NCBI GenBank assembly: GCA_963718515.1
Contig: OY970354.1
Span: 502,808-566,807 of the forward strand
DNA: 64,000 nucleotides
Reading direction: 5' to 3'
Origin: an uncultured bacterium
GTDB taxonomy: Bacteria > Patescibacteriota > Minisyncoccia > UBA6257 > 2-01-FULL-56-20
In this document: one piece after another, positions 2 to 63,695 of the stretch
How positions within the stretch are numbered: the stretch's first letter is position 1
Layout: every line of letters starts with the position of its first letter
Made by a program: the position numbers and the translations under genes
Notes under the pieces: generated by a model
Seen by the model: the letters and a program-made list of their open reading frames with translations, nothing else
The model's database searches: none
What the model was told of the DNA's origin: nothing

Positions 2-1090
2 CCTTCAGAAGCGTTGCCTATTTCTGTTGATACGGATGGGTATGAGATCAACGAGGAGATGCGGCTCAAGTATCGCTATCTCGATCTTCGCCGCGAGCGG
101 CTGGCGCATAACCTTGCATTCCGCCATCATATCATCACTTTTATTCGTAACTTTTTGAATGAGCGGGGTTTTTTGGAAATTGAAACGCCGAACCTTACGC
201 GTTCGACGCCCGAAGGCGCACGCGATTATCTGGTGCCATCGCGCATACAGAAGGGGAGTTTCTACGCCTTGCCGCAATCGCCCCAGCAGTACAAGCAACT
301 GCTCATGGTGGCGGGAGTGGATAAGTATTTCCAGATCGCGCGGTGCTTCCGCGACGAGGACACCCGCGGCGACCGCCAGCCGGAATTTACCCAGCTTGAT
401 ATGGAAATGAGCTTTATCGAGCAGGAGGATATTTTGGCGTTGAACGAAGAACTTTTGATAAAACTCGTCAAGGCGCTTGCGCCGGAAAAAAAGATCCAGG
501 AGATTCCTTTTCCGCGCATCACGTATAAGGAAGCGATGGAAAAATATGGCACCGACCGACCGGATATGCGTACCGATAAGGAAGACAAAGACCTTCTGGC
601 GTTCTGCTGGGTGATCGATTTTCCTTTCTTTGAAAAAACGGAAGAAGGCGGATGGACGTTCACGCATAATCCTTTCTCTGCACCAAAGCCGGAATTTATG
701 AACGATCTTTTGGAGAAAAAGAATATCGGCGAGATCCTTACCACTCAATACGACGTAGCGATGAATGGATTGGAGATCGGCGGCGGAAGCATCCGCAATC
801 ACGAAGCGAAGGCGCTCGAAGCGGTGTTCGAGATCATGGGATTCGAGAAGGAGCGGATCCATAAGAATTTCGGGCACATGCTTGAAGCATTCAGCTACGG
901 CGCGCCGCCGCATGGTGGGATCGCGTGGGGTCTTGACCGGCTGATTTCACTGCTTGCCGCCGAGCCGAACATCCGCGAGGTCATCCCATTTCCAAAGACC
1001 GGTGACGGGCGCGATCCGATGATGGAATCGCCGGCACCGGTGGACAAGAAGCAGTTGGATGAGCTAGGATTGGAAATAAAGAAAAAATAA
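2..1090 (+). CDS. aspS: aspartate--tRNA ligase, C-terminal ~360 aa (5' end lies outside the window)
   Basis: The frame is open to the window edge. Class II AspRS motifs are present: FYALPQSPQQYKQ, QIARCFRDED, GGGSIR, PPHGGIAWGLDR. Confidence 0.9.
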   Translation, partial: PSEALPISVDTDGYEINEEMRLKYRYLDLRRERLAHNLAFRHHIITFIRNFLNERGFLEIETPNLTRSTPEGARDYLVPSRIQKGSFYALPQSPQQYKQLLMVAGVDKYFQIARCFRDEDTRGDRQPEFTQLDMEMSFIEQEDILALNEELLIKLVKALAPEKKIQEIPFPRITYKEAMEKYGTDRPDMRTDKEDKDLLAFCWVIDFPFFEKTEEGGWTFTHNPFSAPKPEFMNDLLEKKNIGEILTTQYDVAMNGLEIGGGSIRNHEAKALEAVFEIMGFEKERIHKNFGHMLEAFSYGAPPHGGIAWGLDRLISLLAAEPNIREVIPFPKTGDGRDPMMESPAPVDKKQLDELGLEIKKK

Positions 1091-1100
1091 AATAATTAAT

Positions 1101-3691: not shown

Positions 3692-3934
3692 TTACTGTTT
3701 CTTGGGGCGGATCTTTTTCGGTTTCGGTTCAACCTTAGCGGCGCGGCGTGACTTGAACTTCTCCACGCGGCCTGCGGTGTCGATCAACTTTTCCTCACCC
3801 GTGTAGAACGGATGGCACTGTGCGCAAATTTCAACGCGGATCTCTTCTTGAGTAGCGCCTGTTGTGAAGGTGTTGCCGCACGCGCAGATGACCGTTGCGT
3901 GAGGGAAATATTTAGGATGCACGTTTGTTTTCAT
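3692..3934 (-). CDS. rpmE: 50S ribosomal protein L31
   Basis: 80 aa: MKTNVHPKY...CAC...[10 protein letters not shown], the zinc-ribbon type L31. Confidence 0.9.
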
Positions 3935-3990
3935 GATGCTGTCTATTATATGCGATAAAAATTAGTTAGTCAAATTTATTTAAAAGTGAA

Positions 3991-4176: not shown

Positions 4177-4271
4177 GGAAAACTCCTTATCCCTAGTTGG
4201 GATTACCAAGGTGACTATAACATATAAATCGCCGCTTTGTCAAATATCACAAGACACTATGTAGCTAGAGA

Positions 4272-4529: not shown

Positions 4530-6075
<1,546 letters not shown>

Positions 6076-6179: not shown

Positions 6180-6217
6180 TTGATGATATAGGTTGTATTT
6201 TGTGTTAAAATAAAACT

Positions 6218-6967: not shown

Positions 6968-7003
6968 TTTTGATGATATACTTCTCGCAGTAGGAGGTTC
7001 TCT

Positions 7004-7536: not shown

Positions 7537-7742
7537 CAACATGTCAAAAAAATCACGCCACATATGACTTCATTTTAGCAGAAAATAAAACGGCGCATCA
7601 GGGGTGCGTCGGGAATCTATACTACGCTTGGTTCGTGCGCCATAATCAGGTGGGCGCGCGTTCGCGTAAGCGTAGTATAGCAGTTGTGGACACGGAAAGT
7701 CCAGTGGTTGCCGCAAGGGAGAAATATGGTACTATAAACGTA

Positions 7743-9451: not shown

Positions 9452-10075
9452 ATGCCCATTACCGAAGAGAACTATCCCATTCGCGGCGCGTATTTTGGAA
9501 AGCTTTGGGTAAGCTTCTTCATTTCTCTCATTATTGGAGGCGTTTTGGTGTTGATCGGAATACAACCCGCTGTTCAGGCGATGGTGTTATGTAATAAGGG
9601 AAATTGTAATCAAGGCGGGATGAGTTATGTATTGTACGCATTCACAATTTTCTTCGTGATTTTTGCTTTTTATTTCCTTATCCATGCAGTTAGTATGAAG
9701 GTCAATTTCCACTATGCCCTCGACGACTCCAACATCAGCGTGAAGAAGGGTTTATTTTCACGGCAAGAGCAATACATGCCTTACGAGACGATCCAGAATG
9801 TATGGATCGTTCAGGGGCCACTCGATAAAATGTTTGGAATTGCATCGCTAAGGGCACGGAACGCTGCGGCCGCTTCTGCGGCAGCTACCGGGGCCGCAAA
9901 GCAGACGATGTGGAGTGGTCCATCAAGAAGGGATCGCGAACAAGAGGCCGCAACGGTTTGGAATAACACGATAGACATTCCCGGTCTCGCGCGACAGGAT
10001 GCAGAGACATTGAGAGATGCTGTCTTGCAAAAGATGCAACAAAACCCTCCGGCGGACACAGGAGCGGGGCTTTAA
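9452..10075 (+). CDS. membrane protein with a bacterial PH domain (DUF304/YdbT-like)
   Basis: TM helices are followed by ISVKKGLFSRQEQYMPYETIQNVWIVQGPLDKMFGIASL. It is adjacent to its paralog (1 nt separates the stop from the ATG). Confidence 0.65.
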   Translation: MPITEENYPIRGAYFGKLWVSFFISLIIGGVLVLIGIQPAVQAMVLCNKGNCNQGGMSYVLYAFTIFFVIFAFYFLIHAVSMKVNFHYALDDSNISVKKGLFSRQEQYMPYETIQNVWIVQGPLDKMFGIASLRARNAAAASAAATGAAKQTMWSGPSRRDREQEAATVWNNTIDIPGLARQDAETLRDAVLQKMQQNPPADTGAGL

Positions 10076-11000: not shown

Positions 11001-11121
11001 ATTTTCCCTCCTAAAGAGCGATGTGCTGGCTCCCAATGGAACCAGTGTCTTCATTCTCAAGTCCAAAGAATGACGCGTCAATTTATTTGCAAATAGTTCG
11101 CAATTAGAATATTATGCGATT

Positions 11122-11597: not shown

Positions 11598-12101
11598 ATG
11601 CAGGAATACGTGACGGATGCGGTCATATTAAGAAAAGACAGTCTCGGCGACCTCGATGGCCGCTATACCCTTTTTACGAAGCGGTTTGGCAAGATCATCG
11701 GGAAGGCGAAGAGCTCGCGGAAAATTACCTCAAAGCTCGCCCCGCATCTTGAGCCCGGTATCGTTGCAAAAGTGCGATTCGTGGAAGCGAAGGGGACGCA
11801 GATCATTGACGCACTTAAATCCCGGCGCCTGGAAATGCTTCTTAACGATCTTCATTGTCTGGGGCAGCTTCTTCCGGACGCCCAGCCCGAAGAAGATCTA
11901 TGGCATCTGCTTGCGAGCGGTGGCTTTTCTTGGGCCAGGGCGCTCGCCATATTGGGATGGGATCCGGAACATGCGGAATGCATCGGATGCGAAGCCGTCC
12001 GTCCCGAATATTTTTATATCCCCCGCCAGGAATTTTATTGCAACCGGTGCGCTTCAAAAGTGCGCCGCGATGCGGTAATATCAATATATGCCCGATTATA
12101 A
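11598..12101 (+). CDS. recO: DNA repair protein RecO (short form)
   Basis: 167 aa. An OB-fold-like N-terminus (AVILRKDSLGDLDGRYTLFTKRFGKI) is followed by the C-terminal zinc motif CIGC...CNRC. Confidence 0.6.
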   Translation: MQEYVTDAVILRKDSLGDLDGRYTLFTKRFGKIIGKAKSSRKITSKLAPHLEPGIVAKVRFVEAKGTQIIDALKSRRLEMLLNDLHCLGQLLPDAQPEEDLWHLLASGGFSWARALAILGWDPEHAECIGCEAVRPEYFYIPRQEFYCNRCASKVRRDAVISIYARL

Positions 12102-14012: not shown

Positions 14013-15439
14013 ATGGAAAAAGCCAAAAAAAATGATAGCGGACTTATGGAAAAAATAGTTTCACTCGCCAAGCGACGCGGGTTTGTTTTTCCAGGATCAG
14101 AGATTTATGGCGGGTTGGCAAATTCGTATGAATATGGTCCGGTGGGCGTGGAGCTCAAAAAAAATATCCAGGATGAATGGTGGCGAGTGTTCGTGCGCGA
14201 GCGAAGCGATATGGTCGGCCTCGATTCATCTATTATTTTGCATCCCAAAGTATGGGAAGCGTCGGGGCACGTGGCGGGACTCGTGGATGCGATGGTGGAA
14301 TGCAAACATTGCCACACGCGCACGCGGGCGGACCATTTGATAGAGAATCATTTCGAGGCAAAGGGCGAAAAGATCAGCGTGGAAGGGAAAACCGAGAAAG
14401 GAGCTCGACGAGATCATTCATGAAAATAAGATAAAATGCCCGACGTGCGGGAAGTTTGATTGGACGCCGGTACGAAAGTTCAATTTATTATTCGAGACGA
14501 ATGTCGGCATCGTGCCGGAGGCGCAATCAAAAGTATATCTTCGCGGCGAAACCGCGCAGGGGATATTCATCAGCTTTCAAAAATATCTTCGACTCCACGC
14601 GCGTCCGATTGCCGTTCGGCGTCGGCCAGATCGGCAAGAGTTTTCGCAATGAGATCACGAAAGGTAATTTTATTTTCCGCACGCTCGAATTTGAACAGGC
14701 GGAGATAGAATATTTCTTTGATCCCGAGGAAGCCGATTGGAAAAAACTATATGAGCAGTGGAAGGGCGATGTTAAAAGTTTTGTGACGGGAAATTTGGGT
14801 ATTAAAGAAGATGCTTGCGCTGGCGCGAGCACGGTGACGAAGAGCGAAGTTTTTATAGCAAGCGGACGGAAGACTTGGAATATAAATTTCCGTTTGGGTT
14901 CAAGGAATTATGGGGCTTGGCGTATCGCACGGATTATGATTTGAACCAACATATGAAGCATTCCGGTGTGGATCTTTCATACACCGATCCGACGAGCGGC
15001 AAGAAGTTCGTGCCGCACGTGATAGAGCCTGCTGTGGGCATAAATCGGCTTATGGCGATGGTCATGCTCGATGCCTACACCGAAGACGGCGACCGTGTAT
15101 ACCTCAAGCTCAAGCCCCGCCTCGCGCCCTATAAAGCGCCGTGTTTCCACTTCTCGCCAACAAACCGGAGCTCGTTGGATCGCGCCCGCGAAGATCTATG
15201 ATCATCTCCAAAAGCAGTTTCTCGTCGCCTGGGATGACCGCGGTAACATCGGCAAGCGCTATTATGCGCAGGACGAGATCGGCACACCGTTCTGTATCAC
15301 GGTGGATTTCGATACGCTTGGCGAAGGCGAAGCGCAAAATAAAAATACGGTGACGGTACGCGACCGCGACACCGGCACGCAAGAACGCGTGGCAATAGAT
15401 GAGCTTCCGGAATTCCTCCATGGCAAAATTTATAATTAA
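14013..15439 (+). pseudogene. glyQS: glycine--tRNA ligase (alpha2 type), about 5 frameshifts as assembled
   Basis: GlyRS sequence runs through the frames in the order 0,1,2,1,0,2. Segments: [13 protein letters not shown]... / [17 protein letters not shown]...[10 protein letters not shown] / [45 protein letters not shown] / [10 protein letters not shown]...[19 protein letters not shown] / VFPLLANKPELVG / IAPAKIYDHLQKQF...GIGKRYYAQDEIGTPFCITVD. Shifts are near 14398, 14577, 14812, 15138 and 15178. Confidence 0.85.
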
Positions 15440-16728
15440 AGGCGGGAAACCGCTGTTCGGCGAGGTCACTATCGCCGGGGCAAAGATGGGCGCGCCTCAA
15501 AAATGATGGTCGCATCGCTTCTTACGGAAGAGCCCTGCATATTGGAAAATGTTCCAAATATCGGGAGATACGATCCATCATCGTAGAGTTACTGCAAAAC
15601 GATTGGAAGTGACGTAGAAATAGCAGGCTCGACCGCAAAGCTCACGACGCCAACCATAAAAAATAATCGCGTATCCACGCTCACGCGGCGCAACCGCATT
15701 CCCATCTTGGCACTTGGGCCATTGCTCGCGCGCACGGGTGAGGCGGAAGTGCCCGTTCTCGGCGGTGATAAGATTGGCGCGCGGCCGGTGGATATCCATC
15801 TTGAGGGATTGGCCAAGCTTGGCGCGCAAATCCAGATAACAAAAGACAGCTATCACGCGTGGGCGAAGGACGGCTTGCACGGCGCGGAAATAGAATTGCG
15901 ATTCCCAAGCGTCGGCGCTACCGAAAATATCATGCTTGCCGCGGTATTGGCAAAAGGCAAAACCGTCATCAAGAATGCCGCGCTCGAGCCGGAGATAATA
16001 GAGCTCGATGAAAATGCTGCAAAAGATGGGCGCGATCGTGGAACTCTGCCCGCCGCGCACGATCACTATCGAAGGCGTCGACGAAGTTGCACGGCGTCAC
16101 GCATCGCGTGATTGCCGACCGCAACGAGGCGGTTTCTATGGCGTGTCTTGCCATCGCAACGAACGGCCGCATCGTGCTGAAAGGCGCCGTTCAGGAACAT
16201 CTCATCACTTTTTTGAACGCCGTGCGGCGACTCGGCGGGGAATACGAGGTAGCGGACGATGGCATCGCGTTCTCTAAAACTCGCGCAGCCGCACTAAAAC
16301 CCCTCGAGATCCGCACCGATGTCCACCCCGGCTTCATGACCGACTGGCAACAGCCGCTCGCAGTGCTCCTTACGCAGGCGCATGGCATATCGAGTATCCA
16401 CGAAACCATTTACGAGGACCGCTTCGCCTACGCGCTCGATCTCAACGAAATGGGCGCAAAGATAAAAGTGACGACCGACTGTCCACCGAACGACCCATGC
16501 CGCTTCAATGGCAAAGGCGCATATCACTTTGCCGTGATCGACGGACCCACCACGCTCGCGAGCAAAAACCTCGCCGTGCGCGATCTCCGCTCCGGCATGG
16601 TCGACATCCTCGCCGCACTCGTCGCGAACGGCGTCTCGGAAGTGGAAGGCGTGGAAGAGATCGACAGGGGATACGAACGAATCGATGAGCGCTTGCGCCA
16701 GTTGGGCGCGGATATCACGAGGAAATAA
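15420..16728 (+). pseudogene. murA: UDP-N-acetylglucosamine 1-carboxyvinyltransferase, about 5 frameshifts as assembled
   Basis: Segments: MAKFIIKGGKPLFGEVTIAGAK / ASKMMVASLLTEEPCILENVPNIG / IIVELLQN / [10 protein letters not shown]...[17 protein letters not shown]...[35 protein letters not shown] / [11 protein letters not shown] / [14 protein letters not shown]...RGYERIDERL. Shifts are near 15490, 15562, 15598, 16000 and 16085. The last 640 nt are intact. Confidence 0.85.
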
Positions 16729-16770
16729 ACGGTCTCGACTTTCATCTCGTTTTCGCATAAAATATATCTC

Positions 16771-17779
16771 ATGTTTGGAAAGAAAATCGGCATCGATTTG
16801 GGCACGGCGAACACCGTCGTTTTTGTGCCGGGCAAGGGATTTATCATCAACGAACCGACGATCGTGGCGCTCACGCAGCCCGACAATACCGTGCTCGCGG
16901 TTGGCGCGGAAGCGAAGGAAATGATCGGCCGCACGCCTGATGAGATCGTGGCATACCGCCCGCTGAAAGACGGCGTGATCGCCGATTATTATATTACGAA
17001 GGCGATGCTCACATATTTTATCTCGAAGGCATCGGGCTGGTTCAATATCATAAAACCGGATGTCGTCATTTCCGTTCCCGCAGGCATCACGCAAACCGAA
17101 CGCCGCGCAGTGATGAACGCCGCGCGCGAAGGCGGAGCGGGCAATGCGTTCATCGTGCGCGAACCGATCCTCGCCGCGCTCGGCGCCGGCATCCCGATCA
17201 ACGCGCGCAGTGGAAACATGATCATGAACATTGGCGGCGGAACCTCCGAGCAGGCGGTGATCGCGCTCGGCAACATCGTTTCGTGGAACAGTCTTCGCAT
17301 CGCCGGCAATAAATTCGACCAGGCGATCATGGATTACATTAAAAAGAAATATGCGCTCGCGATCGGCGAGCAAACCGCCGAGCAAGTCAAGATCGCGATC
17401 GGTTCCGCCATGCCCACAAAGGAAAAAATGGAATATCAGGTGCGCGGCCGTGACCTCGTGACCGGCCTTCCCAAAGATATCGTTATCAATTCCAATGAGA
17501 TCGCCGAAGCACTTGAATCCGCTTCTTATCGAGATCGCCACGTCCGTGCAAAACGTCTTCAATGTGACGCCGCCGGAACTCGTGGCGGACATTATGGAAA
17601 AGGGAATCATCCTTTCCGGCGGCAGTGTCCAGCTCCATCATCTTCCGGAATTCTTTGAGCGATTTTTGGGCGTGCAGGCGTACGTCGCCGAAGATCCGTT
17701 GTTCTGTGTCGCAAAAGGCACCGGCCTCATTTTGAATCATTTGGACACATATAAGCGCACGCTCTTGAACAAACACTAA
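16771..17779 (+). pseudogene. mreB: rod shape-determining protein MreB, one frameshift as assembled
   Basis: IGIDLGTANTVV...NIGGGTSE...EIAEALE is in one frame. From about 17518 it continues as PLLIEIATSVQNVFNVTPPELVADIMEKGIILSGGS...AEDPLFCVAKG in the next frame. Confidence 0.85.
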
Positions 17780-19516: not shown

Positions 19517-19617
19517 TCCACACCTCTTAATTGAACTTATAGTATTAAAACAAATCAGGGAGTAAAGTCAAGTTTTATTATTGAGCCCCGTCTGTTAGAC
19601 TTAATGGGATTTTTACC

Positions 19618-22174: not shown

Positions 22175-22192
22175 GCGCGATATAATAAGGCT

Positions 22193-23371
22193 ATGATCCA
22201 ACGTGGCATAGCTTCCTTCGGACTTGATTCAGGCCACTGCCCGCCGTGGCTTTTTGAGCGCATGGTAAAGCTCGGACGCGAAATGATGTACGTGCTCGTG
22301 GCCGAATATGGCCCGGAGGAATTCATAAAACGCATCGCGGACCCGGTATGGTTCCAATCACTCGGCACTGTTTTGGCGTTCGATTGGAATGCCTCAGGCC
22401 TAACCACCATTTTAACGGCGGCATTAAAAGAAGCGATCCGTGGCCATGAAGCGGATTTTGGCATTGTGATCGCTGGTGGAAAAGGAAAGACATCGCGCAA
22501 AACGCCGGACGAAATATTGGCGTGGGGTGAGCGGCTGTCATTGCCCGTTGCGCAGGCGAACAACCTTGTTTATAACTCCAAGATGAGTGCAAAAGTGGAT
22601 AGCGCGCTTGTGCAGGATGGGTTCCAGCTTTATCATCACGCGTTCTTTTTTTCGCGCGGCGGCGCGTGGGCCGTCGTCCAGCAGGGGATGAACACCGAAA
22701 AAGCATCCGCGCGGCGCTATCACTGGTATTCAGAAAATGTGAATGACTTGGTCTCCGAACCGCACTCCGGCATTTCATCGCCGGTCACGCTAAAAACCGT
22801 TCTCGATCTGAGCGCACAGAAAAGCGACAAGACCCGTGAGATCTCGACCGAGCTCACGCAAGCAGGCTATGCGACGCTCATGAAAGACATCACATTGCTC
22901 CGCAAATATTCTTCAGAGCTTTCACAAATGGCGAAGATACAGATCGGTGGCGACGGCAGAAACAGTCAGCAACTTACCTTGCTCAATTTAGAGTCCGTGG
23001 AATTCACCCATCACCCCGTCGTTTTTGAAGATTTCTCTAAAAGCAAATATCTGGAAAAGATATTGGCCAAGGTGACCGACCGGAAACCGAAAAACTATGA
23101 ACAACTGGTGGCGATCGAGGGTGTTGGCGCAAAGACGGTCCGTGCGCTCGCGCTCGTTGGTGAGGTTATCTACGGCGCATCGCCATCCTATGAGGACCCT
23201 GCGCGTTACAGCTTTGCCCACGGTGGCAAAGATGCCACGCCCTATCCGGTGGATCGCACCACGTACGACGAGACGATCATGATGCTCGGCCGCGCGGTGA
23301 GGAAGACAAGGCTACCGACGGTGGATAAGGAAAAAGCGCTCAGCCGACTAAACGACACGCATATGGTATAA
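22193..23371 (+). CDS. DUF763 domain protein
   Basis: 392 aa. The N-terminus CPPWLFERMVKLGREMMYVLVAEYGPEEF...LAFDWNASGLTT matches my memory of DUF763. The function is unknown. Confidence 0.55.
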   Translation: MIQRGIASFGLDSGHCPPWLFERMVKLGREMMYVLVAEYGPEEFIKRIADPVWFQSLGTVLAFDWNASGLTTILTAALKEAIRGHEADFGIVIAGGKGKTSRKTPDEILAWGERLSLPVAQANNLVYNSKMSAKVDSALVQDGFQLYHHAFFFSRGGAWAVVQQGMNTEKASARRYHWYSENVNDLVSEPHSGISSPVTLKTVLDLSAQKSDKTREISTELTQAGYATLMKDITLLRKYSSELSQMAKIQIGGDGRNSQQLTLLNLESVEFTHHPVVFEDFSKSKYLEKILAKVTDRKPKNYEQLVAIEGVGAKTVRALALVGEVIYGASPSYEDPARYSFAHGGKDATPYPVDRTTYDETIMMLGRAVRKTRLPTVDKEKALSRLNDTHMV

Positions 23372-23380
23372 TCCGCATAT

Positions 23381-27703: not shown

Positions 27704-27828
27704 ATGGTGTAGTATACCATAGAAGCCGCAGAGACCTATCTCTTATTGCCGCCATAATAGCACTTATCCACAGGGTTAGTTAAGTGAATTAACAGTTATG
27801 GTTTATAATTAAAGTACGTTCACGATCC

Positions 27829-29388: not shown

Positions 29389-29410
29389 TGGTTTGTTGTA
29401 GTATTAGAGA

Positions 29411-30310: not shown

Positions 30311-31044
30311 AACGGATAGTGCTGACGCGAAGTGCCTCGGGAAATCGTGCTTGGAAAGATTATTTTGTGGCTCGGGGATTCTATGTGTATTTATTTCCGA
30401 CGATCGAAATGATCCCCGTGAAGCCGAGTGCCAAGGTGATCGATGTGTTAAAAAACATCGATGCTTTTGATTGGGTGATCATCACGAGCATCGAAGCCTT
30501 GCGCGCCGCGCAAACCATCGCGAAACAATCGGACATCAACTTGTCGGCACATCATATAAGGTCGCTCGGGGTACTGGGGAAAGAAACCGCGGTCGCCGCG
30601 CGTGCCATGGGGTATCGCGTCGCTTTCCGGCCCCCCAGGCCGATGAGTGAGACCCTAGCCCAAGAACTTCCCCTGGCCAAGAAGTCTTCGGTACTATTCT
30701 TACGAAGCACGATTGCTTCGCGGACGATCCCAAATGTCCTTACCAAACGAGGCGCGAAAGTGACCGATCTCGCTGTGTATCGAACGGTATCCGTTGGCAC
30801 TTCCGATCTTCGTTTCGAGCGGTTATTAAAAGAAGGGGCTATTCACTATCTCACCTTTGCAAGCCCTTCGGCAGTGCAAGGTTTTTTTAAACGCATCGAC
30901 GGGAAAATATCTAAAAAAGCACTCGCTATTCCGGTCGTTGCAATCGGGCCCACCGTGGCCAAAACTCTCAAAAAATGGGGCTTTAAAGATATTCATGTTG
31001 CGAACGATCCCAACCCCAAGAGTATGGCAGAAGCCATGGTATAA
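30307..31044 (+). CDS. hemD: uroporphyrinogen-III synthase
   Basis: 245 aa with a HemD-like two-lobe pattern. Its start overlaps the hemC stop (ATGA), and its position within a heme operon supports the call. Confidence 0.7.
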   Translation: MKRIVLTRSASGNRAWKDYFVARGFYVYLFPTIEMIPVKPSAKVIDVLKNIDAFDWVIITSIEALRAAQTIAKQSDINLSAHHIRSLGVLGKETAVAARAMGYRVAFRPPRPMSETLAQELPLAKKSSVLFLRSTIASRTIPNVLTKRGAKVTDLAVYRTVSVGTSDLRFERLLKEGAIHYLTFASPSAVQGFFKRIDGKISKKALAIPVVAIGPTVAKTLKKWGFKDIHVANDPNPKSMAEAMV

Positions 31045-31724
31045 TGACCCCTATGGATAGCCATCCCTATCACCATTATTTATTTTTTAATCTAGGCAAC
31101 GAGTTCTATCAATTGCCAAAAGGGGAACAAGATCAGCTGAAAATGGAATTTTTGGCATTCCTTTCCGCCGTTGATCACCTCATCATCGTTTCCTATGCGA
31201 CGCTCGGTTTGAAAGCGAAAACAACGTTTATGCTATGGTGTCGGGCGAAAGATCCGGGAGAGATATCCATAATGCTCGGCCATCTGTTCCGTACGAAACT
31301 CGGCCGCTACCTCAGCGTCGAATACACATTTTTTGGTATCGTACGTAATTCCGAATATAGCGGGCGAACCGGGAAGCCGGAACAAGTGATGCAAAATTAT
31401 CCGGACCGGCTTCCGTATTTTATCCTCTATCCATTCACGAAAACTTCGGAGTGGCACCTGCTTGATCGCGAGAATCGTTCCGCCATTATGGGACAGCATA
31501 TAAAAGTCGGCCTGGGCCATCCGGAAATCAGACAATGCCTTTTATACTCATACGGCGTTGATGATTACGAATTCATCGTGTCGTATGAGACAAAGACGCT
31601 GGAAGAGTTTCAGGACCTTGTGATCGAGATGCGAAGGACCGTCGGACGCAAATATACGCTCGTCGACACCCCGACATTCACGTGCATCTATAAACCATTG
31701 GCGGAGCTTATAGGATCCCTGTGA
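31044..31724 (+). CDS. hemQ: chlorite dismutase family protein, probable coproheme decarboxylase (HemQ/ChdC)
   Basis: 226 aa. Motifs YFILYPFTKTSEWHLLDRENRSAIMGQHIKVG and YSYGVDDYEFIVSYET are typical of the Cld/HemQ family. Confidence 0.75.
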   Translation: MTPMDSHPYHHYLFFNLGNEFYQLPKGEQDQLKMEFLAFLSAVDHLIIVSYATLGLKAKTTFMLWCRAKDPGEISIMLGHLFRTKLGRYLSVEYTFFGIVRNSEYSGRTGKPEQVMQNYPDRLPYFILYPFTKTSEWHLLDRENRSAIMGQHIKVGLGHPEIRQCLLYSYGVDDYEFIVSYETKTLEEFQDLVIEMRRTVGRKYTLVDTPTFTCIYKPLAELIGSL

Positions 31725-33671: not shown

Positions 33672-33692
33672 ATAGGGTATAATTAAAAAATC

Positions 33693-38675: not shown

Positions 38676-38710
38676 TGGATACTAGTATACACCCAAAATT
38701 TAATTGTCTT

Positions 38711-41428: not shown

Positions 41429-41481
41429 TTCCCCTATTTTACTATAAAAATGGGCGGATTTCTAGGGTGTTATCTAGTCTC

Positions 41482-45296: not shown

Positions 45297-46189
45297 TTAT
45301 TATACAACAAAAAGTGCCCATGATCGGGAAAAATCCCTATTGTGCCGCTTTGCGCGGTGCCAAGAATGGTCACTTTCGTCGAAGATGCCAGGTTTTGGAT
45401 CATCGCCTTTGACGGAGCACTTGGGGTGTTCTTTATGCCAGGCGCAATGACCATGATGTTCGGGTCAACTGTTTTCAAAAAATCGCCTCCCGCGACGGTG
45501 TTCAACCCGGAAAGAGGAGCTTTTAGGATAGCGGCGCGGAGAGTGGCATGATTCGAGAGAAGAATATTCTCCACATTGGTGCCAACGTCGCTCGCAAGCA
45601 GTGCGCGGAACTCTTGTGTGATCACATACTGAACGATGGCCGCATCGCTCGGCTCTGCGCTACCCACAAAATATTTATTCGGCGAAATGATGTCTATCTC
45701 ATCACGGCCATAATGGATACTATCCCCCGCTCCGATCGTGATAAGCGGAATATGTTTGGCGTTAATCTGTAACACGAGCGCCTGCCAATCTCTCGTGTCA
45801 TTGCTATCATTCCGGCCATCATATAAAAATGCGCCGACGGCATCATGATCAAGTAGAGAAGTGTATCCATTATAATCACCCGACTGCGGATACGATATGA
45901 CGGCGAGGTCAATATACGAAGGCATGTCGCGCGAAGAGAATATTTTTTGCACCGCCTCTGCCGCTGTGCCGTCAGACCCAGCGTCCGTCATAATGGTCAC
46001 GCCATCCGGCAATATGGTCAGCACGGACTCTCCTTGAGAAACGGCTAAAAAATATATGCCAGGCGCGGCTGGACCGCCCGCAGTAGTAATGGAAAAAATG
46101 TCATACCAGAGCGTCCCATCGAGCGTGATCAAAGCAAGGAGAATGATAGCACTCCAGACATCAATAATTTTCTTGCGATGGCGTGGCAT
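45293..46189 (-). CDS. MBL-fold protein corresponding to the ComEC C-terminal domain
   Basis: 298 aa. One TM helix is followed by IYFLAVSQGESVLTILPDG...MTDAGS, which resembles the ComEC lactamase_B domain. Confidence 0.6.
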   Translation of the reverse strand: MPRHRKKIIDVWSAIILLALITLDGTLWYDIFSITTAGGPAAPGIYFLAVSQGESVLTILPDGVTIMTDAGSDGTAAEAVQKIFSSRDMPSYIDLAVISYPQSGDYNGYTSLLDHDAVGAFLYDGRNDSNDTRDWQALVLQINAKHIPLITIGAGDSIHYGRDEIDIISPNKYFVGSAEPSDAAIVQYVITQEFRALLASDVGTNVENILLSNHATLRAAILKAPLSGLNTVAGGDFLKTVDPNIMVIAPGIKNTPSAPSKAMIQNLASSTKVTILGTAQSGTIGIFPDHGHFLLYNK

Positions 46190-47579: not shown

Positions 47580-47613
47580 ATCGCCATAATAGCGAATGAG
47601 GGATTAAAAGAAG

Positions 47614-49980: not shown

Positions 49981-49995
49981 ATGTTAATTATCCCC

Positions 49996-51276
49996 TTATT
50001 CCTCGATGATGGGAAGCGTTGCCGGCGGACTGCCACGTCGTGAATCGATCTTTTCAAGTTCGGTCGTTGAAACAACGCCGAGCGGGAAGTGAAATACTGT
50101 CGCCAGTTCTTCGATATTCAATATCGATTCGTGGTGTGCGGGAAGGAAATGGCGATAATGCTCAAAGATAAGCCGCTTCCTCGCCCGGATGCGGGTTTTT
50201 TTGAAAAGTCCTTTGACGGAATACGATGCGGTGGAAGTGGGGCTGTTCGGCTTCAGGGAGTTCAAATTCTGCGTGTTGAACTGGCGGATAAATCCGTGGA
50301 TGGAATTCGTATGTCCCGGATCGGAAGTGCTCTCGCGTTTCTCAATATAGATAAAGCGGAGCGTTGCCTCGAACGCAATCTTCGATATTTTGAGGTGGAT
50401 CGCCTCCGCGCGCTCTTTCTCGACGGGCGTCTGCAGGAAGCGCTGAGGCTTATCTTTTTTGTCTTCCTTATGCGCGCTTGCCTCGCCAGGATGCTGGAAC
50501 GGGCCGCGCACGATCTCGCCCGGCGTAAGGCCAAGATCAAAATCCGGCCACATGCTCGGTTTTTTCTTTTTTTCTACGCCGAGAAGTTTATTGATCTCTT
50601 CCTCCCCTTCTTTTCTAAACTCCTCCCCGGTGGGTTTTATGAGCACCTGAAACCAGAGCTGTTCGTCGCCCTTCAACTTTGACATTGCCTCCATAAGCGG
50701 GGCGATCGTATCAATGCGCCGCTCTTCCACCGATTCTTCGAACATCGGATAGGTGCGGATCGGCAAATAATTCTCATGGCGCAGAACCTCTTCAAGGCCG
50801 GAGAGATCAAATTGCGGGTTCGGCAGGGTGTGCGGCAACTCTTCAAGGTAGTCATCAACTTCATTGATCTCCGCCTCGGGATATTGGGCGTAGATCGCGG
50901 ACTCCATCATGTTGCGGAACTGTGAAGGCACTCTGAGGTAAAAATGGGTCTCGCCAGCACGGCCAATCAGCTCAAACACCATCCAATATTCCTCCTGTCC
51001 CTTCCAATATTTATTATAAAAAGGAATGCCATACGAATACGGCGCGTGCGCGGCGGCAAATATCTGCTCCATCGCCTTCGGCGTTTTTAAGACATTCTTT
51101 GGCACCTTGATCTCGAGCAACTTCCATTTGATGTCGCCCACGAATTTATGATGCAGATGCAGTTTCCACCCTTCCCAAAAGATAATGATGGCGATGATCG
51201 GAAGCACGATCCACCACAATACGCCCCAAACGGCGAATATGCTCTGTATGATGCCTACCAGGAAGTTATTGCCCAT
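49996..51276 (-). CDS. hypothetical membrane protein paired with the coupling-protein-like ATPase
   Basis: 426 aa. Two N-terminal TM helices are followed by a large soluble domain (ELIGRAGETHFYLRVPSQFRNMMESAIYAQYP). It lies 15 nt upstream of the ATPase. Confidence 0.55.
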   Translation of the reverse strand: MGNNFLVGIIQSIFAVWGVLWWIVLPIIAIIIFWEGWKLHLHHKFVGDIKWKLLEIKVPKNVLKTPKAMEQIFAAAHAPYSYGIPFYNKYWKGQEEYWMVFELIGRAGETHFYLRVPSQFRNMMESAIYAQYPEAEINEVDDYLEELPHTLPNPQFDLSGLEEVLRHENYLPIRTYPMFEESVEERRIDTIAPLMEAMSKLKGDEQLWFQVLIKPTGEEFRKEGEEEINKLLGVEKKKKPSMWPDFDLGLTPGEIVRGPFQHPGEASAHKEDKKDKPQRFLQTPVEKERAEAIHLKISKIAFEATLRFIYIEKRESTSDPGHTNSIHGFIRQFNTQNLNSLKPNSPTSTASYSVKGLFKKTRIRARKRLIFEHYRHFLPAHHESILNIEELATVFHFPLGVVSTTELEKIDSRRGSPPATLPIIEE

Positions 51277-51335
51277 ATATCAATTATCGACTGCAAAACG
51301 ACAAAGTGCAAAGTGGCCCGTTCGTCGTAACGATC

Positions 51336-52367
51336 TTAGGATTCCCGTACGCGATACCTGCCATCGTTCATGCGCTCAAAGAAGTTCCGGTTTTGGAGGT
51401 TTATCAGGATCGTGTTCGCCTTAAAGAAGCGCTGTTGGTTCACGTGGGTAACCACATCGTTCGCCTTGAGCGGACCCTTGGTTTTCAATACTTTGGCGAT
51501 CACTTCACGCGCGGTGCCCGCTTCATACCCGTGCTCTTTGAGGCCATAAATGCCGCGTCCAACGAGGACGAAGCGAGCATCTTTGATGAGCTCGTTGTGA
51601 ACAGTAGGAGCAAGCGCTTCTTGTTCATCAAAACCGACTTTGTTGATGTGCTTTGCAATATCTTCAAAGTGAAGCGGCTCGTTTTTCTTTTTAAGCACAA
51701 GATAGATCTTGTCGCGGACGGTCGACGGATTGATCTCGGGCCACTCGTAAAGTCCGGCATCGCCGTAAGGGTTCGTGCCGATCTGCTTCGAGATGCCGAG
51801 GTAGTTCTCTGCGATCTCCGTCACTACCGGCTTCGTCTTAAGAAAACTCGCAAGCTGAACCTGATATGAATCGCTAAATACCTTTTCTTTATGGTTCTTC
51901 AAAAAGCTCACCCACGAATTTACGAACGCGCCGGCGGTCTTAAGGTCTTTTTCCGTAACATAATAGAAAGGATTGAATGCATCATCCTCCCGATAAAGGT
52001 TGAACGCTCCCGATGCCTCTGCGAGGAAATCAAGATGATTCTCCCGAACGCCGCTCGCGATGGACGACGCAAACTGGACCACGTCGGCCTTCTTTGAAAC
52101 GCCGCCGCGGGCGATGATGAATTTCTTGATCTTCTCAAGAATGACCCCCGCCTCGGGGTTCTTGCTGATATTGGTTTTTACAACCACGATGGCGCCATTC
52201 TCTATCTGGCGAACACGCTCGCGGGTAACGTTAAGCCGCTCCCCGATCGCGGCGAGAGTCTCTCCGTCCGTTTTACCATCCAAGCCAAAACGAGCCGTAA
52301 TAACCTCCTTTTGACGGGGATTTAGGCCAGCGAGCGCTGTATTTATAAGTTTCACTATTGATGCCAT
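51336..52367 (-). CDS. DNA-binding protein with a sigma-70 region-4-like HTH and HARE-HTH-like domains
   Basis: The N-terminus LNPRQKEVITARFGL...TLAAIGERLNVTRERVRQIE is followed by LHFEDIAKHINKVGF...VLVGRGIYGLKEHGY. The start is chosen at MASIVKL because the ORF-track TTG start is the -35 box. Confidence 0.6.
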   Translation of the reverse strand: MASIVKLINTALAGLNPRQKEVITARFGLDGKTDGETLAAIGERLNVTRERVRQIENGAIVVVKTNISKNPEAGVILEKIKKFIIARGGVSKKADVVQFASSIASGVRENHLDFLAEASGAFNLYREDDAFNPFYYVTEKDLKTAGAFVNSWVSFLKNHKEKVFSDSYQVQLASFLKTKPVVTEIAENYLGISKQIGTNPYGDAGLYEWPEINPSTVRDKIYLVLKKKNEPLHFEDIAKHINKVGFDEQEALAPTVHNELIKDARFVLVGRGIYGLKEHGYEAGTAREVIAKVLKTKGPLKANDVVTHVNQQRFFKANTILINLQNRNFFERMNDGRYRVRES

Positions 52368-52385: not shown

Positions 52386-52415
52386 ATTATAAACTATATT
52401 ATAGATAAATGTCAA
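52386..52415 (-). promoter_or_regulatory. sigma-70-type promoter heading the long minus-strand gene array
   Basis: On the minus strand: TTGACA (52415-52410), 18-nt spacer, TATAAT (52391-52386), 18 nt upstream of the ATG at 52367. Confidence 0.45.
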
Positions 52416-54679: not shown

Positions 54680-54707
54680 ATTATAGCAGGTTCTCTTAAA
54701 AGAACAA
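54680..54707 (-). promoter_or_regulatory. candidate promoter giving a leaderless or near-leaderless secD mRNA
   Basis: On the minus strand: TTGTTC, 16-nt spacer, TATAAT (54685-54680), then 8 nt to the ATG at 54671. Confidence 0.35.
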
Positions 54708-56825: not shown

Positions 56826-56862
56826 AGTTGTTAATAATACACCTCCCGCAAATATTTTCCAG

Positions 56863-57654
56863 TTACTTCCCGAGCGGAGCCACCGGTGCAATCTCTGCTT
56901 CTGGCTTTGCAACTACCGCCCGTGCGGCGACGCCTTCCTCGTATGCCTTTCCCACCCGCTCTAAAAACCATTCGATGCTCTTTTTTGCCTTATCGTTGCC
57001 GGGAACCACATAATTGATCTTATCCGGATCTGCGTCAACATTTGCGAGCGCGACCACCGGGATCTTTTTTGTGATCGCTTCGGCGAGTGCCGTGTGGTGG
57101 AGGATCGGATCGATGAGCACGAGTACATCAGGCTCTTTCGTCATGTTCTCAAGGCCGCCCATCAGGTCTTCAAGGCGCTTCATTACACGCTCCATCTCAA
57201 GACGCTCCTTTTTTGTGTATTTATCGACGAGCGCGCCAGAGGCGAGGTCCGTGCGAAGGGTTTTGAGATACTCAATGCGCTTTGCGATGATTTTGAAGTT
57301 CGTGATCGCGCCGCCGACCCAGCGGGTGGTGACGTATGGGATGCCGAGCTTCTTTGCGAGTGCCGTGAGGCTTGTTTCCGCCGCCGGCTCGGTGCCCACG
57401 AGCAATACGAGGCCGTTATTCCGCACGCGCTCTTTTATGAATGCCGCGGCACTATCCATCATTTCTTCCGTTTTTTGGAGATTGATGATCTCAATACCTC
57501 CGCGATTCCCTAAAATAAAGCCGCGCATTTTTGGATTGGTCTTGCTCTTTTTGCGGCCATAAAAAACGCCCGCATCCATCATTTCGCGGGACCCTTCCGC
57601 CGGATATCCGGACGTTTGATTGTTCTCTGTGCTGATTATTGTCTCTTCTGGCAT
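56863..57654 (-). CDS. rpsB: 30S ribosomal protein S2
   Basis: 263 aa. Motifs AGVFYGRKKSKTNPKM, LLVGTEPAA and YVTTRWVGGAITNF. Confidence 0.9.
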   Translation of the reverse strand: MPEETIISTENNQTSGYPAEGSREMMDAGVFYGRKKSKTNPKMRGFILGNRGGIEIINLQKTEEMMDSAAAFIKERVRNNGLVLLVGTEPAAETSLTALAKKLGIPYVTTRWVGGAITNFKIIAKRIEYLKTLRTDLASGALVDKYTKKERLEMERVMKRLEDLMGGLENMTKEPDVLVLIDPILHHTALAEAITKKIPVVALANVDADPDKINYVVPGNDKAKKSIEWFLERVGKAYEEGVAARAVVAKPEAEIAPVAPLGK

Positions 57655-57661
57655 AGGAGAA

Positions 57662-57689
57662 AGTATAACAAATGGCTGAAGATAGTCAA
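57662..57689 (-). promoter_or_regulatory. near-consensus promoter positioned for a leaderless rpsB mRNA
   Basis: On the minus strand: TTGACT (57689-57684), 16-nt spacer, TATACT (57667-57662), then only 7 nt (TTCTCCT) to the ATG at 57654. Confidence 0.55.
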
Positions 57690-57690
57690 C

Positions 57691-58751
57691 TTATCTCGAT
57701 AAGAAAAATATCACAAGCCCGAGCGCGCAGAAGATCGCCGAGATGATCCAAAAGCGCATGGTGACCTGCGACTCGGGCCAGCCGAGCGCTTCAAAGTGGT
57801 GATGGATGGGCGTCGAGCGGAATACTTTCTTTCCATGTCGTAGCTTTTTGGAAGCAATTTGGATAATGACGGAGAGCGATTCGAGGACGAGGATGATGGT
57901 GAACAATGGAAGGATAAGCGTCGTGTTCGTAAGCATCGCGATGACGCCGATCGTGATGCCGAGCGACATCGAGCCGGTATCCCCCATAAAAAATTTTGCC
58001 GGATAGATGTTGAACCAGAGGAATGCGAGCAATGCGCCGATAATGGCACCGCAAAACGCTGCAAGGTCATAGCTGTGCAGGACGAATGCCACCGTGGCGA
58101 GGGATACGAACGCAAAAAGCGAAACGCCACCAAGCAGACCATCCAGACCATCTGTTTCGTTCGCAGAAAATGCGCTGGCAAAAATAATGAAGATAAAGAT
58201 CGGGATGTACCACCAGCCGATCGTGATGTTGCCCACGAACGGGATGAATAATATGTTCCATCCGAGGCGGAAATAAAACCACCAGGCACCGATGAGCGCA
58301 ATGAGCAGTATAGACGATCGATTTTTGCCGGATTTTTAATCCCCCGCCGGATGCGCCGCCGAGCTTGAGCACGCCGAGCCAGTCGTCGAGCAATCCGAGA
58401 AGTGCGGCGATGAGGAACGCGGCGATGCGGCAGATACGTTTGTGCGCGATCAATAAAATTAAAATAGTGCCACACGCCCCCAAACAGATGATTCAAAATA
58501 TCGAAGAAAATGGCCATCCCGATTACCGTCGTCCAGATGATAATGCCACCGCTCGTCGGCGTACCTTTTTTGTTCTTATGTAGCTCGCGAAAACCGGCGT
58601 GTCCGAAGCGTCGCGCAAGATGCTTCCCGAATTTATATTTGACGATGAATGTATACCAGAGTGGCGTAACGAGCAGTGCAATCACGAACGCAAGCGTCGT
58701 TAAAACAGTGACCCGTACCGCCTCGCTGAGTAAAAGTGATTGCATCAACAT
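57691..58751 (-). pseudogene. mraY: phospho-N-acetylmuramoyl-pentapeptide transferase, at least 2 frameshifts as assembled
   Basis: MraY sequence uses all three frames. Segments: N-terminus to ...NFIDRA / RICRIAAFLIAALLGLLDDWLGV / LLIALIGAWWFYF...SANETDGLDGL...FMGDTGSMSLG...PIHHHFE. Shifts are near 58440 and 58315. Confidence 0.85.
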
Positions 58752-61073: not shown

Positions 61074-61112
61074 AATGGATGTCTATCCAATCATCATATA
61101 TAATAGGGTTAC

Positions 61113-62249
61113 ATGGCACAAGCACTCTATCGCAAATATCGGCCGCAGAAGCTGGATGACGTCCTCGGCCAAGAGACGAATGTCGAGATTCTCAAGAATG
61201 CCGCAAAGGCTGGCCAGCTTGGTCAGGCATATATTTTTTATGGCGCACGCGGGACGGGAAAGACGACGACCGCGCGGCTGATCGCAAAGTTGCTCAATTG
61301 CGAAAAGCGCCGCACCGATCCAGCAGTTCGCCGCGCTCGGCGAGCCGTGCAACGAGTGCCGCGAATGCCTGGCGATCGATGCGCAGAATTCTTTCGACGT
61401 CGTGGAGATCGACGCCGCATCCAATCGTGGCATCGACGAGATCCGCAACCTCAAAGAGAACATCCGCACCTCCCCCGCTTCCGCCGAGCACAAAGTTTAT
61501 ATTATAGATGAGGCGCACATGCTCACCGGCGCGGCGTTCAATGCGCTCTTAAAAACTTTGGAAGAACCGCCCGAGCACGCGGTGATCATTTTGGCCACCA
61601 CGGAATTCGAAAAGCTTCCGCCGACGATCACTTCCCGCGCCCAGCGCTTTGTTTTCAAGAAATTGACCAAAGCGACGATCATCGAAAAACTCACGTCGAT
61701 CGCAAAGACGGAAAAGATAAAGATCGATGCGTCTGCGATCGAGCTCATCGCCGCCGCCGCCGAAGGAAGTTTCCGTGATGCCGAATCGTTGCTCGACCAG
61801 ATCTCATCGATCAGCGGCGCCGCCGAAGGCAACGCCGCCGCAAAAGGCATCACGCTCGCCGACGCAGAGCGCGTGACCGGCCGCACCGGCCTCAAAAAAG
61901 TGCACGAGATGGCGGAATTCATAGTTGCAAAAGATATTAAAGGTGCGCTTGGATTTTTAGATGAACTTAATGAAGAAGGCCATAACCTGGTGCAGTTCAC
62001 GAAAGACCTTATCCATTATTTGCGCAAAGTGCTGTCGCTTAAGATCAATCCATCGCTCAAGGCGATCATGGAGCGAGACCTGACGCGCGACGAGGTTGCT
62101 GCGGCGCAATCGCGCTCGGCGCGGATGCCGACACGGCCACGCTCGTGAAAATCATCAAAGCCCTCATCCGCGCGTACGCGGAGATGCGTTACTCCCCTTT
62201 CGCTATTGTTCCGCTCGAAGTGGCGCTCGTGGAAAATCTTTCTTCGTAG
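61113..62249 (+). pseudogene. dnaX: DNA polymerase III subunit gamma/tau, 2 frameshifts as assembled
   Basis: YRPQKLDDVLGQ...YGARGTGKTTTARLIAKLLNCEK is in one frame. GEPCNECRECLAIDAQNSFDVVEIDAASNRGIDEIR...IIDEAHML...TSRAQRF is in the next, and IALGADADTATLVKIIKALIRAY...TAG in a third. Shifts are near 61300-61322 and 62105. Confidence 0.85.
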
Positions 62250-62276
62250 ACAAAAATCCTGCGGCGTGCGTATAAT
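62247..62276 (+). promoter_or_regulatory. candidate promoter for tRNA-Gln
   Basis: TAGACA, 18-nt spacer, TATAAT (62271-62276), 21 nt upstream of the tRNA 5' end. Confidence 0.4.
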
Positions 62277-62297: not shown

Positions 62298-62371
62298 TGC
62301 CGGATCATCTAATGGTAGGATAGTGGACTCTGAATCCATTCATCTTGGTTCGAATCCAAGTCCGGCAGCCA
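62298..62371 (+). tRNA. tRNA-Gln (anticodon CTG)
   Basis: Acceptor TGCCGGA/TCCGGCA (U1-A72), anticodon arm GTGGA-CTCTGAA-TCCAT, T-arm CTTGG-TTCGAAT-CCAAG. The 3' CCA is encoded. Confidence 0.85.
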
Positions 62372-63645: not shown

Positions 63646-63695
63646 TACTTAATTTTATCTGTTTTTGGATAATATGTAAAAATATTACCCGACCG

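Follow-up and report, generated by a model that had tools for sequence, protein, structure and literature searches.

How translation may begin in a bacterium whose 16S rRNA has lost the anti-Shine-Dalgarno (anti-SD) sequence is the question raised by the rpsB locus, which lies in a 64-kb stretch of DNA (hereafter, the window) on contig OY970354.1 of an uncultured bacterium. Ahead of rpsB and of many other genes of the window, a TANNNT hexamer resembling a sigma70 -10 promoter element (hereafter, the box) stands only 6 to 9 nucleotides (nt) from the start codon, and an earlier note, made from the sequence alone, had proposed on this ground that leaderless initiation is widespread in the genome. 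All 16 cases listed in that note were reproduced with hexamer, spacing and coordinates as given, and its best case, the rpsB geometry, was recovered when the minus strand was re-read: TTGACT, a 16-nt spacer, TATACT, 7 nt and ATG. It is quite probable that the boxes at 6-9 nt are sigma70 -10 elements which direct the synthesis of leaderless or near-leaderless mRNAs in a genome devoid of an anti-SD.

The source of the window was traced through ribosomal protein S2. A protein search with one genome per species returned 26 close relatives of 52-89% identity, all of them metagenome-assembled genomes labelled Candidatus Paceibacterota, Parcubacteria or Minisyncoccia and recovered from habitats such as Danish soils and SPRUCE peat; the nearest, with 85-89% identity, bear these same labels. 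By this affiliation, the window, with a G+C content (GC) of ~50%, is assigned to a Paceibacterota/Parcubacteria bacterium. Its 16S gene (4530-6075) has an intact helix 45 of the type found in the candidate phyla radiation (CPR), and alignment with the Rfam model identified its 3' end as GGAUCA-AUUAAACU, compared with the consensus GGAUCA-CCUCCUUU; no CCUCC was found in the 150 nt following helix 45. The absence of an anti-SD, which the earlier note had stated, was borne out by this alignment, and with the tail AUUAAACU the SD:anti-SD helix therefore cannot form. Upstream of the window starts, SD words are close to background: one resembling the SD stands before 3 of 75 starts (4%), compared with 33-65% in Escherichia coli. 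Three apparently leadered genes have such a word at SD distance despite the missing anti-SD (Table 1), and their number approximates the chance expectation of ~1.5 per 75 genes.

The positions of the boxes were analyzed in the window and in ~0.55 Mb of related DNA. Starts were assigned by rule, each long open reading frame (ORF) being taken to begin at its first ATG, GTG or TTG whether or not a box preceded it; the gene models are approximate, with several apparent frameshifts and many shadow ORFs at 50% GC, and a dicodon model and manual review were applied. Of 75 window ORFs, 21 have a TANNNT that starts at -12 to -15. When the -40 to -1 region of each gene was shuffled with its dinucleotides preserved, the count was 7.1 ± 2.5, and none of 2000 shuffles reached 21, such that the positional peak on which the proposal of leaderless initiation depended was present. 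With the relatives of the rpsB neighborhood, the corresponding value was 117 of 453, compared with ~32 expected from flanking positions.

AT-rich spacers, upstream stop codons, the definition of ORF starts and the hand-picking of examples could together yield TANNNT words without any function, and there is some substance to this concern. TA[AG]NNT is indeed inflated at -15, -12, -9 and -6, since an in-frame stop precedes each ORF; three boxes (1088-1093, 23367-23372 and 31040-31045) contain the stop codon of the upstream gene, ~7 of the 75 matches are expected by chance, and the box of secF is not conserved in relatives. However, a peak remains for TA[CT]NNT, a word that cannot represent a stop codon, with 12, 27, 19 and 25 occurrences at -15 to -12 and ~5 at positions elsewhere (528 genes of the window and relatives). 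When in-frame TAA and TAG were removed, 16 window ORFs retained TANNNT, compared with 5.3 ± 2.1 in shuffles; with or without such stops, the shuffles never attained the observed count. Neither the starts of shadow ORFs nor internal in-frame ATGs, processed identically, showed a comparable peak, and 50 kb of E. coli DNA of similar GC passed through the same pipeline gave 2 boxed starts among 52 (4%). Moreover, it is TATAAT itself that is enriched, ~15-fold, and not AT-rich words in general, and boxes are conserved where their flanks diverge. An origin in stop codons or AT-richness was consequently rejected on the evidence of TA[CT]NNT, the shuffles, the shadow ORFs, the internal ATGs and E. coli, and an artefact of this kind is considered exceedingly improbable.

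A test free of gene calls returned the same association. On both strands of the window, an ATG follows 12 of 57 TATA[AC]T words at a distance of 6-9 nt, where chance would give 6.2%, and 10 of these 12 ATGs open ORFs of at least 90 amino acids (aa). The values were 98 of 377 in the rpsB-neighborhood relatives and 20 of 104 in independent contigs of the clade flanking 16S genes, and over these three sets nearly all ATGs so placed open ORFs of at least 90 aa. The megaplasmid of Deinococcus radiodurans, included as a positive control, had too few genes and noisy starts and, with 3-6 of 41, offers little calibration, while loci of Peribacteria and Omnitrophota, serving as SD-using controls, provided 82 genes only, with weak signals.

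Promoter character of the boxes

A de novo search of the region from -20 to -5 returned TATAAT as the top enriched hexamer, present before 44 genes compared with 3 and 2 in equal-sized control windows. When the sequences were aligned on the box, its free positions followed TAtaaT (T.49, A.60, A.70), TG was enriched at -3/-2 (T.42, G.50), as in an extended -10 element, and TT was enriched at -23/-22, where a -35 element with a 17-nt spacer would start. Among the 28 boxed starts of the window, TGn accompanies 8, compared with 5% at control TANNNT sites (p = 2e-4), and a -35 match of at least 4/6 accompanies 32%, compared with 9.8% of controls (Mann-Whitney p = 8e-5); in most boxed starts the -35 element is weak. 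By these features, the boxes are genuine sigma70-type -10 promoter elements rather than ribosome-binding sites.

The strongest argument for promoters is the conservation of the boxes at rpsB, dnaX, tsf and secD in relatives while the flanking sequences diverge. Ahead of rpsB, the arrangement TTGAC[TC]-N16-18-TGnTATA[CA]T-N7-10-ATG is kept in 24 of 27 relatives, and the sequence upstream of the -35 element is unrelated; one relative (L013) has GTG at the start position. With dnaX, all 20 relatives found have TATA[AC]T at a distance of 6-8 nt from the ATG, and the upstream neighbors are entirely different. The distance from promoter to start codon is, as judged from these comparisons, under selection. 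The rpsB spacer was also observed to be kept and nearly all-pyrimidine in the window and in L001-L023 (TTCTCCT, TTCTCGT, CTTCCTCGT), a degree of conservation that seems to exceed what the choice of start site alone would need.

The 6-9 nt between box and start codon is also the spacing of an SD sequence, and the same coincidence of -10 and SD spacing is recorded for M. tuberculosis (PMC6028130). A replacement ribosome-binding site could thus be envisaged, with the tail AUUAAACU pairing with a co-evolved A/U-rich motif 6-9 nt before the start. In keeping with this, the clade's tail, ATTAAACT, is identical in 19-20 contigs that diverge exactly after it, and inspection of the sequences indicated that UAUAAU could pair with AUUAAA with one mismatch. 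However, words complementary to the tail were not enriched (GTTTAA, 0; AGTTT, 5 vs. 5 and 5; TTTAAT, 9 vs. 3 and 1), and the fixed T1, A2 and T6 of the boxes with their variable middle (TATACT, TAAAAT, TAGTAT) is the pattern of a -10 element and not that of a duplex. The TGn and -35 features would be irrelevant to pairing, and the tails of sister CPR lineages differ greatly from one another. On account of the complementary words and of the variation in tails between clades, the pairing hypothesis was rejected, and it is held to be very improbable.

The boxes might instead act at the level of RNA, as A/U-rich, unstructured translational enhancers of the S1 type on leadered or polycistronic mRNAs, in the manner of non-SD initiation in Bacteroidota, with any promoter activity being secondary or absent. 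The region from -20 to -3 is generally A-rich and G-poor (A.30-.39, G.17-.20); boxes also precede 11-16% of the relatives' tightly packed genes (those overlapping or no more than 25 nt after the upstream gene), where read-through is likely, and unboxed genes need some SD-independent route in any case. What is enriched, however, is one hexamer with fixed T1, A2 and T6, and not A/U-richness; it is accompanied by the TGn and -35 hallmarks, and a full TTGAC-17-TGnTATACT promoter is kept at rpsB across the clade. Furthermore, strong boxes are commonest before divergent or well-separated genes (22-33%) and rarest before overlapping ones (11%), with ~2% at a control offset. Enhancement without promoter function is accordingly regarded as unlikely; a dual role of the boxes, as both promoter and enhancer, may apply.

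Transcription start and reach within the genome

With -10 boxes lying 6-9 nt upstream, RNA polymerase would take the A of the AUG, or a base 1-3 nt ahead of it, as its starting point, and its products would be leaderless or near-leaderless mRNAs with a leader of 0-3 nt. The E. coli enzyme is reported to favor the 7th or 8th base after the -10 element and a pyrimidine-purine step, Y(-1)R(+1), at the start site (Vvedenskaya et al. 2015). A 6-nt spacer puts the A of the ATG at the 7th base past the -10 hexamer, and a 7-nt spacer puts it at the 8th. The start codon is ATG in 85 of 95 boxed starts (89%; 27 of 28 in the window), and a pyrimidine immediately precedes it in 85% of the 7-nt spacers; together, these values are consistent with the Y(-1)R(+1) rule. 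With rpsB, the first purine after the -10 box is the A of the ATG itself. From such features we infer both the transcription start positions and initiation on a 5'-terminal AUG.

A number of observations weigh against the boxes acting as leaderless promoters. Perfect TATAAT is most often found 8 nt, and not 6 nt, from the ATG, and in the 8-nt class spacer position 7 is occupied by A in 57% of cases and by G in none, while position 6 is a pyrimidine in 72%; transcripts of this class may have their 5' end 2 nt ahead of the AUG. The box is lacking from more than half of the genes, ~7 of the boxed window starts may be due to chance, the box of secF being an example, and the loci of the relatives are partly orthologous, such that counts from them are not independent. 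A generic two-hexamer promoter scan was not enriched overall (22 matches vs. 20.2 ± 4.7 in shuffles), its top matches alone being useful. Finally, in two relatives, L015 and L026, insertions have increased the distance between the rpsB promoter and its ATG to 18 and ~40 nt, respectively; leadered expression of rpsB would therefore be viable in the clade.

The composition of the 8-nt class bears in particular on the suggestion that the promoters are real and that transcription starts at the 7th base, thereby leaving short leaders of 1-5 nt on which initiation would be SD-independent and of the 30S type rather than of the 70S leaderless type. Spacers of 6-8 nt are equally common, those of 8 and 9 nt occur as often as those of 6 and 7, and a shoulder of boxes exists at 10-12 nt (the rpmE-like gene at 3934 and ORF 20702). 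Against this, the spacers of 6 and 7 nt would put the A of the ATG on what are said to be preferred start positions, and that of rpsB has no purine before this A; in addition, leaders of 5 nt or fewer are reportedly counted as leaderless in most experimental studies (Cortes et al. 2013). Initiation of the 30S type on short leaders as the general explanation is thus given little weight. The proposal that a -10 box sets transcription to start on or next to the AUG was upheld by the position, composition and conservation of the boxes, while the 8-nt class suggests that leaders of 1-2 nt would have to be allowed for.

With refined gene models, ~26-30 of ~68 evaluable window starts are boxed at 6-9 nt, of which ~7 would be expected by chance. 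A manual tally of likely first genes of transcription units (n = 31) recorded 15 as boxed. Three further first genes are near misses, two of them (51276 and 49980) with GATAAT 6 nt before the ATG and a -35 element, and the third (3934) with TTGACT-17-TATAAT 10 nt before it; ~7 of the 31 have their -10 element at 15-22 nt, and hence are leadered. Leaderless-type geometry thereby serves roughly 25-40% of genes and, of the genes that open a transcription unit, about half. To have called leaderless translation the default mode, as the earlier note did, was an overstatement given that the other genes are coupled or clearly leadered; the leaderless type is the commonest recognizable signal, and it probably serves about half of the transcription units.

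The presence of boxes before 11-16% of packed genes indicates that internal promoters exist within dense clusters. In some co-directional clusters of this kind, the promoter would reside in the 3' end of the upstream gene, at times in its stop codon. Genes outside this arrangement would be translated either through coupling to the upstream gene (overlap or gap of no more than 10 nt) or by an SD-independent route on leadered mRNAs. Approximately 15 unboxed genes overlap the upstream gene or follow it within 10 nt, and these are probably translationally coupled. Leadered genes with a conserved promoter 15-22 nt upstream comprise scpA, the sigma-like gene 52367, and ORFs 3232 and 39913. With scpA (upstream of 61073, minus strand), a conserved TATGAT/TATCAT lies ~19-21 nt before the ATG in both the window and relatives, and no SD-like word was found in its predicted leader of 12-14 nt; scpA is apparently an example of SD-independent leadered initiation in the clade. 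The sigma-like gene (51336-52367, minus strand) carries the sole perfect TTGACA-18-TATAAT in its part of the window, and in relatives L010 and L012 TATAAT stands 7 nt before the ATG of the same Sigma70_r4/HARE-HTH gene; leader length therefore varies between relatives.

Comparison with known systems

The leaderless mechanism and the loss of the anti-SD in Parcubacteria are already known separately. In the GeneMarkS-2 survey, which does not mention the CPR, group C (Actinobacteria, Deinococcus) is characterized by a Pribnow box separated from the start by 6-8 nt and by 25-50% leaderless transcripts (PMC6028130). As in its members Mycobacterium, Streptomyces and Deinococcus, a TANNNT box lies near the starts of first genes in the window and ATG dominates among start codons; a localized -10 box, the hallmarks of promoters and a substantial share of first genes are each found here. 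Group C retains the anti-SD, however, and its remaining genes use SD sites, whereas the 16S of the window has no anti-SD, SD words are close to background, and the remaining genes were found to be without SD sites (SD-like words at 3 of 75 starts). This lack of an SD fallback for the remaining genes is the twist relative to Actinobacteria and Deinococcus. The window differs further from group C in that its boxes also occur inside packed clusters, sometimes overlapping the upstream stop codon, and in its slightly longer spacers, perfect TATAAT being mostly at 8 nt.

The Bacteroidota (group B; PMC6028130) resemble the window in making little use of SD pairing and in their A-rich upstream region. 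They have kept the anti-SD, and the same A-rich motif precedes all of their genes, including those internal to operons, and therefore it cannot be a promoter there; the motif of the window, by contrast, is TATAAT with TGn and a -35 element and is commonest before first genes. The archaea dominated by leaderless transcripts (group D, Haloferax, Halobacterium) likewise have a promoter at a fixed short distance and rely little on SD sequences, but their box lies ~22-26 nt upstream and is read by TBP/TFB, whereas that of the window is a bacterial sigma70-type -10 element at 6-9 nt.

Among Parcubacteria, only 48% were found to carry an anti-SD motif, and loss of the motif overlaps with loss of the ribosomal protein uL1 (Tsurumaki et al. 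2022, RNA 28:1041; PMC9297842). The window, with a 16S lacking CCUCC(U) at its 3' end, resembles the Parcubacteria without anti-SD described in that study, which is silent on how such organisms initiate translation and in which the word 'leaderless' is absent. Start-site data for the CPR are available for Nanosynbacter lyticus, a Saccharibacterium (PMC12641261), and a literature search found, among the papers covered, none linking leaderless initiation to the CPR, Patescibacteria or Parcubacteria, PMC9297842 being the sole relevant one.

Metagenomes were scanned for 16S 3' ends with a base other than C after GGATCA, and 120 contigs (L035-L154) were returned, most with a CPR-type helix 45. Their tails are A/U-rich and highly variable between lineages (TTTTTTTA, ATTAATTT, TTTATTTT and others), which disfavors a conserved replacement anti-SD. 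The tail of the window, ATTAAACT, recurs in 19-20 of these contigs with divergence immediately after it, and among the genes flanking these 16S copies TANNNT was found at -12 to -15 in 23 of 99. In the other lineages lacking an anti-SD, the TATAAT peak is weak, and SD-like words are unexpectedly enriched at -13 to -10 before ~12% of genes, on contigs with a CCUCC-less 16S of their own (e.g., L048, L076 and L043); some of these words, such as AAAGGAGGTAAAATATG, are textbook cases. The loss of the anti-SD and leaderless signaling are thus not tied one-to-one: these other contigs combine a weak -10 peak with an excess of SD-like words. The strong -10 peak is a feature of the window's own clade (tail ATTAAACT, GC ~50%), being much weaker in other CPR contigs without an anti-SD.

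A broader scenario, to which somewhat less than even probability is accorded, is that the soil and peat Paceibacterota clade with the tail AUUAAACU has dropped SD pairing altogether, with most of its transcription units leaderless or near-leaderless, compact promoters placed within the ends or even the stop codons of upstream genes, many members of dense co-directional arrays transcribed singly, and the rest translated by SD-independent coupling or reinitiation. If true, it would give the Parcubacteria without an anti-SD their first inferred initiation regime, and the leaderless-dominated archaea a bacterial counterpart. For one such clade, start codons adjacent to promoters would provide a testable answer to the question left open by PMC9297842.

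Catalogue of boxed starts and neighboring features

The gene names given in the earlier note also held, Pfam having confirmed rpsB, tsf, secD, dnaX (by an N-terminal fragment), the DUF763 gene, murC, gltX, the receiver-domain (REC) gene, fur, hemC and ndk. The domains begin 1-14 residues past the proposed starts (DUF763 at residue 5, hemC 7, ndk 7, REC 8, gltX 9, murC 11 and fur 14; S2 at 25), and each listed start codon is the first to follow an in-frame stop; with dnaX and mreB, there is no alternative ATG ahead of the conserved N-terminal motifs. The start codons of the listed genes appear secure, since they are the first of their ORFs and the Pfam domains begin within 14 residues. At the ORFs 7743, 31053, 45290, 55507 and 56825, translation probably does not begin at the earliest start codon of the frame; gene callers built on SD sites will place starts wrongly in such genomes, and the -10 box can serve to correct starts of this kind. 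The features are collected in Table 1.

Table 1. Coordinates of boxed starts, promoters and related features in the window, and of two insertions in relatives.
Feature	Position	Strand	Basis or remark
16S rRNA 3' tail AUUAAACU replacing CCUCCUUU, anti-SD absent	6068..6075	+	Rfam alignment; tail recurs in 19-20 independent metagenome contigs
rpsB -35 element TTGACT	57684..57689	-	TTGAC[TC] kept in ~20 relatives, 16-18 nt spacer
rpsB extended -10 element TGT-TATACT (hexamer 57667-57662)	57662..57670	-	TGnTATA[CA]T kept in relatives with 62-89% identical S2
rpsB 7-nt spacer TTCTCCT, pyrimidines only	57655..57661	-	Sequence; 7-10 nt in 24/27 relatives
rpsB CDS, ribosomal protein S2, 263 aa, ATG at 57654	56863..57654	-	Pfam Ribosomal_S2 E=6.8e-65; first start codon of ORF
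rpsB upstream insertion in relative L015	about 9950-10000		Promoter-ATG distance 18 nt
rpsB upstream insertion in relative L026	about 9930-10000		Promoter-ATG distance ~40 nt
tsf -10 box TATTAT, 8 nt before ATG 56825	56834..56839	-	TATAAT/TATACT 7-8 nt before ATG in 12 relatives
secD extended -10 TGC-TATAAT, 8 nt before ATG 54671	54680..54688	-	TGT-TANNNT, 8-nt spacer, in L010, L012, L015
dnaX -10 box TATAAT, 8 nt before ATG 61113	61099..61104	+	Sequence; conserved in relatives
DUF763 gene TATAAT, 6 nt before ATG 22193	22181..22186	+	Sequence; Pfam
TATAAT (TGG ahead), 8 nt before ATG 23381	23367..23372	+	Box includes TAA stop of DUF763 gene
TATAAT, 9 nt before ATG 33693	33678..33683	+	Sequence
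murC TATACT, 8 nt before ATG 38675	38684..38689	-	Sequence, Pfam
gltX TAAAAT, 7 nt before ATG 41428	41436..41441	-	Sequence, Pfam
mreB TAAAAT, 7 nt before ATG 16771	16758..16763	+	Sequence
ndk TAAAAT, 7 nt before ATG 1101	1088..1093	+	Box TAA is stop of upstream ORF; Pfam
Receiver-domain gene TGT-TAAAAT, 6 nt before ATG 6218	6203..6211	+	Sequence, Pfam
fur TATTAT, 6 nt before ATG 11122	11110..11115	+	Sequence, Pfam
hemC TAGTAT, 6 nt before ATG 29411	29399..29404	+	Sequence, Pfam
TAATAT, 6 nt before ATG 12088 (DUF11 protein)	12076..12081	+	Box within upstream ORF
TGG-TACTAT, 7 nt before ATG 7743	7727..7735	+	Sequence
TGG-TATACT, 7 nt before ATG 27703 (HlyD-like protein)	27711..27719	-	Sequence; not in earlier note
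TGG-TATAAT, 7 nt before ATG 31053	31037..31045	+	Box includes upstream TAA stop; not in earlier note
TATAAT, 8 nt before ATG 45290	45299..45304	-	Sequence; not in earlier note
TATTAT, 6 nt before ATG 47579 (competence protein ComEC-like)	47586..47591	-	Sequence
TTTACA-17-TAAAAT promoter, 6 nt before ATG 63645	63652..63680	-	Sequence
TTTGCA-18-GATAAT near-consensus box, 6 nt before ATG 51276	51283..51312	-	Sequence
TTCCCA-17-GATAAT near-consensus box, 6 nt before ATG 49980	49987..50015	-	Sequence
TTGACT-17-TATAAT, 10 nt before ATG 3934 (L31-like, rpmE-like)	3945..3973	-	Predicted leader ~3 nt
TTGACA-18-TATAAT, 18 nt before ATG 52367 (Sigma70_r4/HARE-HTH protein), leadered counter-example	52386..52415	-	Sequence, Pfam
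AGGAGG-7-ATG, start 7004	6990-7003	+	SD-like word; ORF 7004 without coding signal in dicodon model
AAGGAG-8-ATG, start 4176	4177-4195	-	SD-like word
AAGAGGTG-5-ATG, start 19516	19517-19535	-	SD-like word

In the three boxes that hold an upstream stop codon, the arrangement is TA-TAA-T at the two sites before 23381 and 31053 and TAA-AAT before ndk, and a single hexamer could both end one gene and launch the next. Ribosomal protein S2 has an N-terminal extension of 24 residues ahead of its Pfam domain, the length and sequence of which vary among relatives; there it is always in frame and starts with MPE or MSE.

Several genes of the window are split between frames (61113-62148, 14013-15439, 15707-16728, 16771-17779 and 57691-58751). 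Relative to the intact 369-370-aa ORFs of L001 and L006, dnaX has a 1-nt insertion near 61322, and the mreB, glyS-like, murA-like and 57711-58751 genes are fragmented in like manner. This splitting looks like the indel error of a long-read assembly and not biology, and it blurs the counts of starts.

In the Rfam alignment, the 16S gene has a 44-nt insertion near model position 1156, where the model has 7 nt. A 23S gene was not found downstream of it in the remaining 58 kb of the window, and the rRNA genes are therefore unlinked. A near-perfect TAGACA-18-TATAAT was observed at 62247-62276 on the plus strand, 21 nt before the gene for tRNA-Gln (62298-62371).

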